Below the pieces are notes generated by a model. It was not told the origin of the DNA. It saw nothing but the letters and a program-made list of their open reading frames with translations, and searched no databases. 64,000 nt of DNA from assembly GCA_965221955.1 (NCBI GenBank), contig CBDCTA010000022.1, positions 96,001 to 160,000 of the forward strand, written 5' to 3'. Both the position numbers and the translations under genes were made by a program. This document shows, one piece after another, positions 3,242-44,447 of this stretch. The DNA is from Gammaproteobacteria bacterium. Lineage in GTDB: Bacteria > Pseudomonadota > Gammaproteobacteria > UBA4575. Each line of letters starts with the position of its first letter. Positions within the stretch are counted from its first letter, which is position 1.

Positions 3242-5443
3242 ATGAGTCCTTCTCACATTATCGTGGTCGCTCTGCCAGTACCGCTATATCAACAATTTGA
3301 TTATCTCCCGGTAAAAACCCAAGTTAGGACTGATTACAAAGTCGGCACTCGTGTGCGAGTTCAATTCGGTCAACGCAAGCTGATCGGCTTGATCGTTGGA
3401 AAATCAGCCAAAAGTGCTATACCTAGAAGCAAGCTAAAACACATTATTGAAGTCTTAGATGATCAGCCCGTATTTGATTCCCAATTATTAGATTTATTGT
3501 TTTGGGCCGCTGAGTATTATCAGCAGCCCATAGGTGAGGTTTTATTCACCGCACTGCCCTCAGTTTTGCGCAAAGGTAAATACATCACACCTGTAACGAA
3601 TACACTATATCGATTAATTGCAGATCAAAACATTGATGAACAATTAAATCGTGCGCCTAAGCAACGTCAAATTGTTGAGTTATTAATATCGACTCAACAC
3701 GGCCTTACAGCAGATGATATTGATAAGTCTATAACAGCTTGGCACAGTGCAATGAAAGCGCTTATCAATAAAAACTTAGTGCAAAAAGTGCAACAAGAGA
3801 ATATTGAGGAAGTTAATCACAAGCCGATAAAGACCCTAAAACTAAACACAGAGCAACAACAAGCTTTTGATGATTTAAAAAACAAGTTAAATATATTTAA
3901 TTGTTGTCTTTTAGATGGTGTTACTGGAAGTGGAAAGACCGAAGTCTATGTATCACTGGCAAAAGAGGTTTTAGAAAATAACAAACAAATCCTATTTTTA
4001 GTTCCTGAAATTGGTCTTACTCCACAGCTCGTGCAACGAATTGAAACACGCTTAGGCAGTAAAGTGTATTTAATGCATTCAGGGTTAAATGATACGCAAC
4101 GTGCACAAACCTGGCTAGCCACAAAAACTACAAAAGCAAAAATTATTGTAGGAACACGCTCCGCAATATTTTTACCTTTCACTGAATTAGGTTTAATCAT
4201 TATTGATGAAGAACATGATTTATCCTTCAAACAACATGAAGGATTTCTTTACAATGCACGCGATATTGCAATTTATCGTGCTAAACAACTCTCCATTCCT
4301 ATTATTCTAGGTTCTGCAACCCCTTCATTTGAAACTCAACTAAATGTTGAAAAAAATCGCTATCAAAAACTAGTGCTGACAGAACGTGCTACAGAATCAA
4401 ATGTTCCAGATATAAAATTAATTGATATGCGCTCCAAGGCATCTGTCGATGGACTCTCGAATGAATTGATTCAAGCCATGCAAACAGAGCTTGGTAACAA
4501 CCATCAAATATTATTATTTTTAAACCGACGAGGTTATGCACCAACAATACTTTGTCAAGACTGCGCATGGGTAGCAGAATGTTCACGCTGCGATGCGCGA
4601 ATGACTTTTTATAAGCAGAGAAATATCCTTAAATGTCATCATTGCCTAAAAGAACAAAAACTACCAGAGCAATGTCCTCAATGTAGTGCGAGCAACTTGT
4701 TATGGTTAGGTGAAGGCACACAACGTATTGAGAATAAATTACAGGAAATTTTTCCAGATGTTGCGATTACACGCATTGATCGTGATAGCACACGCAAAAA
4801 AGATGCCTTGACCGAAAGATTGACTGAAGTCCACGAAGGCAAGTATCAGATTATTATTGGTACTCAAATGCTTTCAAAAGGACATGATTTTCCCAACGTA
4901 ACTTTAGTTGGGATCTTAAATGTTGATCATGGCTTATTTAGTACAGATTTTCGTGCCACGGAACGTTTAGCACAATTATTAGTTCAAGTAGCGGGTCGAG
5001 CCGGACGAAGTAGTAAAAAAGGTAGAGTCTTGTTGCAGACCTATTTACCCGAACACCCCTTACTAAATTGTCTGTTATCACAGGGCTATACAGCATTTAG
5101 CAAAGAGGCTTTGAAAATCCGCCAGGAATGTGCACTCCCCCCTTATACCTCCATGCTGATGGTTCGCGCACGCGCGAATAAGCAAAATCTAACAGATAAT
5201 TTTTTACAAAAAGTGAAAACTATAATTACGAAAGAAAGTATCCAAAATTTAACCGTATATGGACCTATCCCTGCAATGATGGAACGCAAAGCCGGAATGT
5301 ACCAAAGTCAATTGATTTTATTTGCTAAACATAGAAAAACCCTGCAACAGAACTTGAATAACTGGACTGAAAAAATCAGTCTTCAACCTTCCGCAAAACG
5401 AGTGCGATGGGATATTGAAGTCGATCCCCTAGAAATGAACTAG
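3242..5443 (+). CDS. priA: primosomal protein N' (replication restart helicase)
   Basis: GVTGSGKTEVY, DEEHD, CxxC zinc motifs, QVAGRAGR, C-terminal DVDP-like EVDP. Confidence 0.98.
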   Translation: MSPSHIIVVALPVPLYQQFDYLPVKTQVRTDYKVGTRVRVQFGQRKLIGLIVGKSAKSAIPRSKLKHIIEVLDDQPVFDSQLLDLLFWAAEYYQQPIGEVLFTALPSVLRKGKYITPVTNTLYRLIADQNIDEQLNRAPKQRQIVELLISTQHGLTADDIDKSITAWHSAMKALINKNLVQKVQQENIEEVNHKPIKTLKLNTEQQQAFDDLKNKLNIFNCCLLDGVTGSGKTEVYVSLAKEVLENNKQILFLVPEIGLTPQLVQRIETRLGSKVYLMHSGLNDTQRAQTWLATKTTKAKIIVGTRSAIFLPFTELGLIIIDEEHDLSFKQHEGFLYNARDIAIYRAKQLSIPIILGSATPSFETQLNVEKNRYQKLVLTERATESNVPDIKLIDMRSKASVDGLSNELIQAMQTELGNNHQILLFLNRRGYAPTILCQDCAWVAECSRCDARMTFYKQRNILKCHHCLKEQKLPEQCPQCSASNLLWLGEGTQRIENKLQEIFPDVAITRIDRDSTRKKDALTERLTEVHEGKYQIIIGTQMLSKGHDFPNVTLVGILNVDHGLFSTDFRATERLAQLLVQVAGRAGRSSKKGRVLLQTYLPEHPLLNCLLSQGYTAFSKEALKIRQECALPPYTSMLMVRARANKQNLTDNFLQKVKTIITKESIQNLTVYGPIPAMMERKAGMYQSQLILFAKHRKTLQQNLNNWTEKISLQPSAKRVRWDIEVDPLEMN

Positions 5444-42474: not shown

Positions 42475-42560
42475 TAGACTACATAATGTCGGTTGTTACC
42501 TTAGCCCAAAAACGAGGCGTTGGCTCTACTAATTAATTATAAGGTATCTAGCATGGGATC

Positions 42561-42574
42561 TTGATGCGGATCAA
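42561..42574. promoter_or_regulatory. FNR/Anr-type box
   Basis: TTGAT-GCGG-ATCAA exact consensus; left half doubles as -35 of TTGATG-N17-TACAGT. Confidence 0.75.
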
Positions 42575-42612
42575 AATCAAGAGTACAGTTTTTTATGCTT
42601 TACGGGAGAAGT

Positions 42613-42900
42613 ATGATTCAGTCCTTCACAAAAATAGTCAGTTTAATAATCTTGCTAGTAGGTATTACGGCAAGCCAAACGACTGCATTTGCTGAAACAG
42701 AATCCAATTCCCTATGTGAGTATATCAGTCTAGCAGATGCTAATAGTGATACTGATGACTCTGAATCTTTACAATCTTCGATACTTGCAACTGTCAGCGC
42801 ACGTGTCCATGCTCATCAAAACAGCACCGTTCAAATCATTACGTATTTAGTTATAAATACAGCTTTTTCCATTAGAGCACCTCCTTACCTCTATCTCTAA
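42613..42900 (+). CDS. putative RAPP-type translational arrest leader peptide with Sec signal peptide (95 aa)
   Basis: GGGAG SD, ATG 42613; signal peptide MIQSFTKIVSLIILLVGITASQTTAFA; C-terminus TAFSIRAPPYLYL. Confidence 0.78.
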   Translation: MIQSFTKIVSLIILLVGITASQTTAFAETESNSLCEYISLADANSDTDDSESLQSSILATVSARVHAHQNSTVQIITYLVINTAFSIRAPPYLYL

Positions 42901-42995
42901 AACTTCTGGTCACCTCTGGCCAAACTTGGTTTTTTATTACTTGGGTAATTACCCAAACTAAATGCTGTTATGGCATTTGGAATAATGGAGAAAGC
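42862..42995 (+). promoter_or_regulatory. SD-sequestering mRNA helix (translational attenuator)
   Basis: GCUUUUUCCAUUA (42862-42874, codons A-F-S-I-r) pairs with UAAUGGAGAAAGC (42983-42995, SD of next gene): 12 Watson-Crick pairs + 1 G.U. Confidence 0.75.
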
Positions 42996-42997
42996 AT

Positions 42998-43396
42998 ATG
43001 GAAACAAATAAATCAGAAAAACATCAACACGATATTGACTATTTCCAGTTTTTACGTGGGATATCTTCATCACCCTACTATGGTCTTGCATTAGCATTTT
43101 CAAATGTTCCTACACCTGAGAAAGATCGCCTAAAACCTGAAAATATTAAAATGATCTTTTTTGGGATATTCAGTGCGGCACTGTACTTACTTTTATTTAA
43201 ATTCCAAGCTGAGATTATTCATTTTGCAGAACTCACTCGTGAAGGAGTAAAGATAGATTTTTTAATCCCAATTGGTATTGCGTTTATATTTTCTTTTGTA
43301 CACGGAGGATTCGCGACCTACTTATGGCAATCACTCGGAATTAAAGCGAAAAATGATTTAGGTAAGGAGCAAGCATGGACGCCATACATTTCATAG
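42998..43396 (+). CDS. small two-TM membrane protein associated with TSUP transporter
   Basis: C-terminal PIGIAFIFSFVHGGFATYLWQSLGIKA; GGAG SD; overlaps the TSUP start. Confidence 0.75.
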   Translation: METNKSEKHQHDIDYFQFLRGISSSPYYGLALAFSNVPTPEKDRLKPENIKMIFFGIFSAALYLLLFKFQAEIIHFAELTREGVKIDFLIPIGIAFIFSFVHGGFATYLWQSLGIKAKNDLGKEQAWTPYIS

Positions 43397-44447
43397 ACCT
43401 CACCGCTACGAGCAGCTTTACACTTTTATTGATTGGTTTTGTAGGCGGCTTGGTAAGTGGTTTCATTGGCTCAGGTGGTGCATTTGTATTAACTCCCGCA
43501 ATGATGACCTTAGGTGCCCCAGGTATTGTCGCCGTTGCCAGCAACATGGCTCATAAGTTTCCTAAGGCTCTTGTCGCTTCCATTAAGCGTGCCAAGCTTG
43601 GTCAAGTCGATGTCAAGCTTGGATTAATAATGGGAGCTTTTGCTGAAATTGGGGTTTATGTAGGTAAAGAAATAATGACACATATTCGTGAGCAATATGG
43701 AGATATTGGTACGGATTTTTATGTTTCCATCATCTTTGTAATTACGCTTGCGATTATTGGTGGAATGATACTTCGAGATGCAAGACGCACGACAGATAGT
43801 TCTTGTACTGAACATGAAGCTACTGATAAACAAACATTAGCGAAATGGATTCAATCCATACACATACCTGGCACCATGATCTACCTGCGATCAATAGACG
43901 CAAAAGTTTCCGTTCTGATTATTGCGCCCTTAGGGTTTGCAACAGGTTTATTAGCAGCTTTTATTGCAGTAGGAGGATTCATAGGGGTCCCCGCAATGAT
44001 GTTTGTATTAGGTGTTCCAGCAATAATAGCGACTGCCACAGAATTAGTTGTAGCGTTCGTGATGGGGTTAGGTGGGAGTATGTTGTACGCGTGGGAAGGG
44101 TATGTAGACATACGACTTTCAATGTTGATTCTCGCTGGTTCTCTTTTGGCGTTCAAGTGGGTGTGATTGCTACGACCTATGTACAGGAAAGCTTTGTTAA
44201 AAAAGTGATGGCTAGCATCATGTTAATTGTCTTAGTTAGCAGACTATTAGTTATCCCTGATTATCTTTCAAGCTTAAATTTGATTAACCAACTTCCTAGC
44301 AGTTGGTCTGTTGTTTTAAATCAATTAAGCGACATTACTCTGGTATTAGCTTTGCTTGTAGGCGCAATTGCAATCATCTTCGCATCAATCTTTGGTGCGA
44401 TTGGAGTGCTACGGAAACAAAAAAGAAATAATGAATTAACTTACTGA
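43375..44447 (+). CDS. sulfite exporter TauE/SafE (TSUP) family protein, one frameshift
   Basis: GFVGGLVSGFIGSGGAFVLTP, AVASNMAHKFPKA, second repeat AVGGFIGVP; one T missing in run 44144-44147, adding it restores GSLFGVQVG and joins the 43845..44447 frame. Confidence 0.88.

Follow-up and report, generated by a model that had tools for sequence, protein, structure and literature searches.

A signal-peptide leader with a candidate RAPP stall site and a Shine-Dalgarno-masking helix upstream of a TauE/SafE transporter operon

The leader, its operon and its homologues

The window analyzed here is a stretch of 64,000 nucleotides from a Gammaproteobacteria bacterium of the UBA4575 lineage (GenBank assembly GCA_965221955.1, contig CBDCTA010000022.1, positions 96,001 to 160,000, forward strand). 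Read directly from the sequence, a 95-codon frame runs from an ATG at 42613 to a TAA at 42898-42900 and ends in the tail A-F-S-I-R-A-P-P-Y-L-Y-L. Its stop lies 97 nucleotides (nt) before the next ATG (42998), which has a GGAG Shine-Dalgarno (SD) sequence at 42987-42990. The original prediction had described this frame as a signal-peptide open reading frame (ORF) ending in a SecM-like arrest motif, and it was right about the frame, its tail, the 97-nt gap and the two proline codons at 42880-42885. The leader and the two genes behind it comprise the following features.

42604-42608, + strand: SD sequence of the leader, GGGAG, read from the sequence
42613-42900, + strand: leader ORF, 95 amino acids plus stop, a candidate RAPP-type arrest peptide by its frame and homologues
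42613-42693, + strand: predicted signal peptide, residues 1-27, cleavage A-F-A / E, with an n-h-c layout kept in 17 sequences and a helix predicted by AlphaFold2
42736-42765, + strand: acidic cluster D42...D46-T-D48-D49-S-E51, with D48 exactly 40 residues ahead of the RAPP arginine, from the alignment of 17 leaders
42871-42885, + strand: Ile-Arg-Ala-Pro-Pro codons, the predicted stall site; I, R, P and P are invariant and A nearly so in 17 sequences
42998-43396, + strand: gene for a 132-residue protein with two transmembrane segments, an FSFVHG motif and no known family, from its translation and database searches
43375-44447, + strand: TauE/SafE (TSUP) transporter gene, overlapping the 132-residue gene by 22 nt, assigned by PF01925

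We judged the signal peptide and its cleavage site by eye, with an n-region to K7, a hydrophobic stretch at residues 8-20 and A-F-A at 25-27. AlphaFold2, given a 17-row alignment, placed a confident helix only over residues 1-20 (predicted local distance difference test, pLDDT, 80-88), and the mature part gave no confident fold (pLDDT 52-63). Searching the leader against Pfam-A with hmmscan (E up to 1) returned neither DUF2946 (PF11162) nor a SecM model, the sole match being TubZ_C_3 at E 0.047, below its cut-off.

Leader homologues were found in 6 of 61 related genomes and, within the same family, in 7 of 56, of which one is marginal. A word-based search of 5.8 billion proteins added four leader proteins, and a profile search of 1.84 billion representatives gave 13 leader clusters at E<1e-10 plus one spurious long protein. 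The alignment of the 132-residue protein, scanned against metagenome_contigs, led to the seventh leader locus at the DNA level, a single short metagenome contig; the same scan of genome_contigs gave three loci, all among those already found. The protein alignment used throughout therefore holds 17 distinct leaders, and DNA-level comparisons cover seven loci, six of them intact for the operon.

All 17 leaders share one layout of signal peptide, acidic stretch, variable stretch and invariant tail. Fifteen of the tails have the form IRAPPxxY[L/I/F]-stop, and the remaining two are IRSPPNLYL and IRASPPYIYL; IRAPP, four codons ahead of the stop, is the sole invariant feature of the mature part. In the window RAPP occupies residues 88-91, and by analogy with ApdA and ApdP (PMC10951233) a stalled ribosome is predicted to hold codon 42880-42882 in its P site and 42883-42885 in its A site. 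Across the seven DNA loci every codon of the Ile-Arg-Ala-Pro-Pro motif has synonymous variants, so the peptide is under selection. Length differences among homologues are all in frame. These comparisons support a conserved, translated signal-peptide ORF.

RAPP-like motifs also turn up in short random frames of the genome, with 26 matches in 36,420 stop-to-stop segments of 30-99 residues, and one could imagine that the RAPP tail and the helix described below are chance features of a spurious ORF. We regard this as hardly credible, and the comparative data refute it: the 17 homologues differ in length without leaving the frame, keep the signal peptide and show synonymous changes in the motif codons, and both the synteny and a promoter-like element are conserved. 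Among longer frames (3,445 stop-to-stop segments of at least 100 residues in the 2.69-Mb genome, GC 38.6%), RAPP occurs twice and RGPP not at all, and the leader holds the sole RAPP close to a C-terminus. This scarcity agrees with the avoidance of RAPP and RGPP across proteomes reported in PMC12992588.

The original prediction had further remarked on a single Cys, an acidic tract, a VHAH string and the absence of the CxxC known from related leaders. All of this is true of the window, but only the acidic cluster is conserved: neither Cys nor His is kept in homologues, and across the 17 sequences there is no CxxC and the Cys positions vary. The distance from the first Asp of the D-D-[P/S]-x motif to the RAPP arginine is exactly 40 residues in 16 of 17 leaders and shifted by one in the other. 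Variation in leader length sits entirely N-terminal to this motif, with no insertion or deletion between it and IRAPP, and the 36-residue linker between the acidic motif and the tail is variable in sequence and fixed in length. Counting back from the arginine, the 14 residues from R-50 to R-37 hold four to eight acidic and zero or one basic residue in every leader.

Downstream, the TauE/SafE identity proposed for the transporter was confirmed (PF01925, E 3.9e-33, 115.5 bits against a gathering cut-off of 32.6). The 132-residue protein, whose orthologues are 69-86% identical, matched no family in Pfam, NCBIfam or the protein atlas. Its gene is present in five genomes of the family including this one, all with intact operons, and the leader lies 95-110 nt upstream in 5/5 as well as on one metagenome contig. 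Beyond the family, 15 of 400 other sampled genomes of the class (16 of 401 with this one) encode a shorter form of the small protein, in each case ahead of a long TSUP gene. At the 16 distant loci we found no RAPP-like motif in upstream same-strand stop-to-stop segments of at least 60 residues, one locus having just 87 nt of upstream sequence. Homologous operons, where the original prediction suggested looking for leaders with covarying helices, carry the leader in all five intact cases of the family, none was found at the distant loci, and the covariation did not appear. It follows that the leader was added to the operon in a single lineage.

A leader that travels with transporter genes and has a conserved signal peptide and acidic residues could also be an ordinary small secreted or periplasmic partner of the transporter, with IRAPPxxYL serving as a binding or processing motif and the helix just coupling the translation of neighboring genes. 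This is distinctly unlikely in our estimate. The mature part is mostly variable and lacks a confident fold, and a linker of fixed length and free sequence fits a ruler in the ribosome and translocon, not a folded domain. The one invariant element is a motif that, according to PMC12992588, is avoided in bacterial proteomes and arrests ribosomes in several contexts. In one family genome (locus L019, G013:C3, about 3540-4700 in leader orientation), moreover, the leader and its promoter-like region are intact though the operon behind them is a deletion remnant, with ~40 codons from the start of the 132-residue gene fused, in another frame, to the final ~85 of the transporter gene.

Pairing around the downstream Shine-Dalgarno sequence

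The last codons of the leader hold two alternative strands complementary to the downstream SD (anti-SD strands), and three small hairpins follow before the next gene.

42862-42874, + strand: anti-SD strand of a 13-base-pair (bp) helix specific to the window, formed by the A-F-S-I codons; predicted by folding and unconserved across loci
42891-42899, + strand: anti-SD strand conserved in the family, C-TAT-CTC-TA, made of the last base of the pre-Tyr codon, the Tyr and Leu codons and two stop bases; from seven loci
42907-42922, + strand: hairpin 1, just 3' of the stop, terminator-like, with a T-run a few bases on; from a terminator scan
42941-42980, + strand: hairpins 2 and 3, inside the long-range helix in the minimum free energy (MFE) fold of the window
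42983-42995, + strand: SD strand of the downstream gene (GGAG at 42987-42990), the partner of both helices by pairing

The original prediction had proposed that the A-F-S-I codons pair with the downstream SD over 13 bp. The pairing is there: GCTTTTTCCATTA (42862-42874) matches TAATGGAGAAAGC (42983-42995) with 12 Watson-Crick pairs and one G-U, and the helix is present in both the MFE and the centroid fold of 42840-43010 (-46.9 kcal/mol, z -4.89, with 0 of 200 shuffles as stable). An ungapped stem of at least 13 arises by chance at a frequency of 0.0019, as measured on 20,000 random pairs of 51-nt and 27-nt segments placed 70 nt apart in the same genome. In an alignment of the seven loci, from 60 nt before the leader stop to 15 nt into the next gene, the same columns paired in 54.4% of cells, against 32-52% for partners slid by one to three columns. 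We rejected the A-F-S-I helix as a family feature on this ground; to judge from these loci, the 13-bp helix is private to the window.

A second helix behaves differently. The strand C-UAU-CUC-UA pairs with the SD-containing UGGAGAUAG in 90.5% of cells, compared with 35-54% in slid registers, and RNAalifold independently recovered this pairing of the Tyr-Leu-stop codons with the SD as the helix that closes its consensus. Synonymous variation is absent from the 5' strand across the seven loci: Tyr is always TAT and Leu always CTC, and the codon ahead of Tyr encodes L, H, T, I, F, R or F with a third base that is always C. Genome-wide, CTC accounts for 6.3% of Leu codons, and 14.6% of third positions are C. 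The invariance of the Tyr-Leu-stop bases despite a rare codon therefore points to conservation at the RNA level. At G013, where the operon is a remnant, the Leu codon is now ATC and one pair of the conserved helix is broken. The contiguous stem measures 9, 9 and 12 bp in three loci.

In the window, a single base change on the SD side both interrupts the family helix and completes the 13-bp helix, and the anti-SD partner there seems to have shifted from a position directly 3' of the stall site to one directly 5' of it. The principle of SD sequestration that the original prediction put forward thus extends across the family, through other codons than those it named, and its particular helix applies to the window only. 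Taken as a whole its interpretation is partly supported: strongly for the leader and its stall motif, and moderately for SD sequestration by a long-range helix, which we consider a moderately supported feature of the family.

The stall motif is itself complementary to SD sequences when RAPP is coded GCN-CCU-CCN. Here the Ala-Pro-Pro codons and the next base (GCA CCT CCT T; 42877-42887) equal nine bases of the 3' tail of the genome's own 16S rRNA (the anti-SD, G000:C29:618279). By complementarity these codons are a third, short anti-SD, predicted to pair with the SD in the fold of the G028 locus.

The intergenic hairpins recur at equivalent positions in the MFE folds of orthologues. Matched against Rfam, the intergenic stretch gave nothing near a gathering score, and it is unique in the genome, which rules out a copy of a dispersed palindromic repeat.

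Hairpin 1 is the sole local stem with compensatory changes (in three of six pairs across the seven loci), and a T-run follows it in orthologues. It bears on a CruR-like alternative, in which the leader stalls but the output is transcriptional: the parked ribosome would decide on termination ahead of the next gene, through Rho or hairpin 1, with SD pairing secondary. We consider this unlikely. The T-run begins 5-9 nt past the stem, which makes a poor intrinsic terminator, and the scan found three terminator-like sites in 2.4 kb against 1.5 expected. A ribosome stalled at RAPP would end ~10 nt ahead of hairpin 1 without blocking it, so that the opposite polarity would be expected. Transcriptional control would also not account for the Tyr-Leu-stop codons being conserved at the nucleotide level and complementary to the SD.

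We modeled the effect of a stall on the SD by forcing the footprint of a RAPP-stalled ribosome single-stranded and predicting the unpaired probability of the SD at the six intact loci. The footprint was taken as -12 to +15 around the P site. On this scale the stalled ribosome would cover part of either anti-SD strand: the one conserved in the family spans +12 to +20 and the one specific to the window -18 to -6. The predicted unpaired probability rose from 0.00 to 0.57 in the window, from 0.01 to 0.54 in G005, from 0.08 to 0.28 in G022 and from 0.00 to 0.28 on the metagenome contig.

A candidate arrest-peptide switch and its relatives

We judge it reasonably probable that the leader is a Sec-targeted RAPP-type arrest peptide that gates translation of the 132-residue gene and the overlapping TSUP gene, the operon being switched on by stalling. 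The sequences show the reading frame and how it is conserved, the motif, the helix, the synteny and the constant spacing; from these we infer that ribosomes stall, that export ends the stall, which way the operon is regulated and what is sensed. In free mRNA, the long-range helix would close over the three small hairpins and bury the downstream SD, using the Tyr-Leu-stop codons as anti-SD strand in most family members and the Ala-Phe-Ser-Ile codons in the window. A ribosome reaching Arg-Ala-Pro with the second Pro codon in its A site would fail to form the peptide bond, as in ApdA, ApdP and SecM. Thus parked, it would cover or abut the anti-SD strand, the helix would open and the SD would be freed; because of the overlap between the downstream genes, freeing a single SD would be enough for the pair. 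Pull on the nascent chain during export through SecYEG would then end the stall and close the switch, a step suggested by the signal peptide and the parallel with SecM. The strength of the pull on the exported part would set the length of the stall and hence the output, and the likely sensing element would be the conserved acidic cluster 40 residues upstream of the arginine.

Several observations weigh against this reading. RAPP alone is insufficient for arrest and the preceding region matters, according to the discussion of PMC12992588, and two leaders depart from the motif, one with RSPP, which is only partly permissive in ApdA and ApdP, and one with RASPP. In the family helix, no pair has changed on both sides across the seven loci, its support coming from conservation and the register control, and it is weak or absent in three of six intact loci (6 bp in the window and G028, no stem of at least 5 in G015). 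The modeled stall barely shifts SD accessibility in G028 (0.00 to 0.03) and G015 (0.40 to 0.47). The predicted SD pairing is itself weakly unusual, since 7 of 200 shuffled window sequences and 7-14 of 100 shuffled orthologue sequences reach it, and the case therefore rests mainly on comparative anatomy. The terminator-like hairpin with compensatory changes between leader and SD could mean that control is transcriptional instead or as well.

The operon may, finally, be defective in the window strain, given that its TSUP gene spans two frames, which change over at a run of four T (44144-44147). At four orthologous loci the gene is one uninterrupted ORF of 357-361 residues, and in tblastn the window's gene matched residues 1-261 at 90% identity in one frame and residues 258-357 at 83% in another. 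Public contigs of two runs stop exactly at 44144-44147, at a depth of about 2 and with none bridging, which fits either an assembly error or a real frameshift.

For the signal, the fixed acidic spacer offers a lead. A segment 40-50 residues from the peptidyl-transferase center sits at the SecYEG translocon, as described in PMC7886326, and acidic stretches placed there let the membrane potential pull on the chain and release SecM arrest (Ismail 2015, as summarized in the review PMC6028853). This suggests that the acidic cluster is the sensing element of the leader and that the signal would be electrical or a cation. A bolder proposal, which we advance with little confidence, is that charge-driven translocation has a natural force sensor in this leader: the 40-residue ruler would set the acidic cluster at SecYEG when the ribosome parks on RAPP, and the membrane potential, or a periplasmic cation neutralizing the cluster, would set the pull on the chain and the release of the stall. 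If so, the operon would be controlled by the energetic state of the membrane and not by Sec capacity or a metal-Cys interaction, and the leader would be an in vivo counterpart of the engineered SecM constructs in which acidic stretches are pulled by the membrane potential.

For a long time, surveillance of the protein-export machinery was taken to be the sole role of arrest peptides. Between 2022 and 2025, members that sense copper were established and many others predicted ahead of unrelated genes, few of them with a defined anatomy. The leader family described here is a compact case, with a 95-codon leader, a 97-nt switch and a transporter as output. Its stall motif is clear, its SD-masking helix is conserved, with a partner strand that has shifted in one lineage, and the distance to its acidic cluster is strictly kept. 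It raises the question of which signal a Cys-free, acidic exported nascent chain can read.

The design is shared with SecM-secA of E. coli, which likewise has an exported leader, a C-terminal stall and a stem masking the ribosome-binding site (RBS), and in which export pull relieves the stall. SecM is, however, a 170-residue protein with RAGP, and the 95-residue RAPP leader has no sequence relationship to it (no Pfam match). SecM also precedes secA, whereas a transporter pair, and not the leader's export machinery, lies downstream here, hence no obvious feedback loop.

Two members of DUF2946 are also comparable. CutF, upstream of cutO in Rhodobacter capsulatus, is also an exported leader with a C-terminal proline-rich stall that melts an RBS-shielding stem-loop, according to a preprint (bioRxiv 10.1101/2025.02.05.636593); it senses copper through Cys, whereas in the present leader neither Cys nor His is conserved and DUF2946 is not matched. 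CruR (Bp2923) of Bordetella pertussis is exported and carries RAPP three or four residues before its C-terminus, as does the leader here (PMC9426467). In both, a sensing motif stands at a conserved distance from RAPP: 45 residues for the CxxC of CruR (PMC9426467) and 40 for the putative acidic one here. The CxxC sensor, Rho-dependent termination, a TonB-dependent transporter operon and a GC-rich 162-bp intergenic region are features of CruR only.

ApdA and ApdP, upstream of secDF, and seven Streptomyces lividans peptides share with the leader the RAPP core, a variable region N-terminally adjacent to it, a signal sequence and small size (PMC10951233; PMC12992588). We detected no homology between them and the leader, and their targets are SecDF, copper proteins, thioredoxin-like proteins and sigma factors. 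The original prediction took the characterized targets of such leaders to be Sec/YidC machinery or copper genes only, a premise now outdated: PMC12992588 reports upstream ORFs with RAPP or RGPP ahead of many gene classes. In that survey (Fujiwara et al. 2025), RAPP and RGPP are avoided proteome-wide, concentrate near the C-termini of small secretory proteins upstream of diverse genes and cause arrest refractory to EF-P, with seven cases proven in Streptomyces. The leader is thus a new family of an already known type of regulator, RAPP leaders ahead of diverse genes, and its hosts are a few uncultured marine bacteria.

Neither TauE nor sulfite appears in the main text of PMC12992588, whose appendix figures hold further downstream classes that might include TauE-type genes. 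In our literature search no publication named both arrest peptides and TauE, and among the matches listed in a wider search none mentioned a sulfite exporter or TSUP. Surveys based on annotation would miss such leaders because the gene directly downstream is a hypothetical protein, and cases with a downstream gene of unknown function were dropped from the 2025 survey, according to PMC12992588.

Promoter-like region and neighboring genes

Upstream of the leader, 250 nt were aligned across the seven loci, whose flanking genes differ. Two elements stand out.

42545-42551, + strand: conserved box, TATCTAG in the window and TATCCAG in the other six loci, a possible regulator site; from the alignment of seven loci
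42561-42589, + strand: promoter-like element TTGATG, 17-nt spacer, TACAGT; from the alignment of seven loci

The TTG and TAnnnT of the promoter-like element (TTG-N20-TAnnnT) are invariant and at fixed spacing in 7/7 loci, about 25-70 nt ahead of the leader start; in a consensus promoter scan the element fell below threshold. It would put the RNA start near 42595, and an upstream ATG at 42595 is therefore unlikely to be used. The conserved box beside it suggests that the operon is probably also under a transcriptional regulator.

Names read from translations place SoxYZ-like, Fae-like, two-component system and ATPase-like genes next to the operon at one locus or another, and UbiE in the window. 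At L015 (G028:C9), SoxY- and SoxZ-like genes and a cytochrome c lie upstream of the leader on the opposite strand. Among the distant loci, a SulP-type permease follows the TSUP gene at L039, and at three loci the TSUP gene is fused to a universal-stress-protein-like domain. The SoxYZ, SulP and fusion neighbors hint at sulfur-anion transport. L026 (G038:C133) encodes the sole distant homologue of the small protein with a long N-terminal region (153 residues), 87 nt from the contig end.

One further ORF is distantly leader-like. At L025 (G063:C14, 1468-1770), a frame with a signal-peptide-like start scores E 0.0098 against the leader profile and ends in PIRASPIALS; a Pro-to-Ser change at this position of the tail is reported in PMC12992588 as non-permissive for ApdP arrest. 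The ORF lies 90 nt ahead of an anion permease with CitMHS and TrkA_C domains (1861 onward; Pfam E 4e-45 and 8e-16), and the string CTATCTC recurs directly after its stop.

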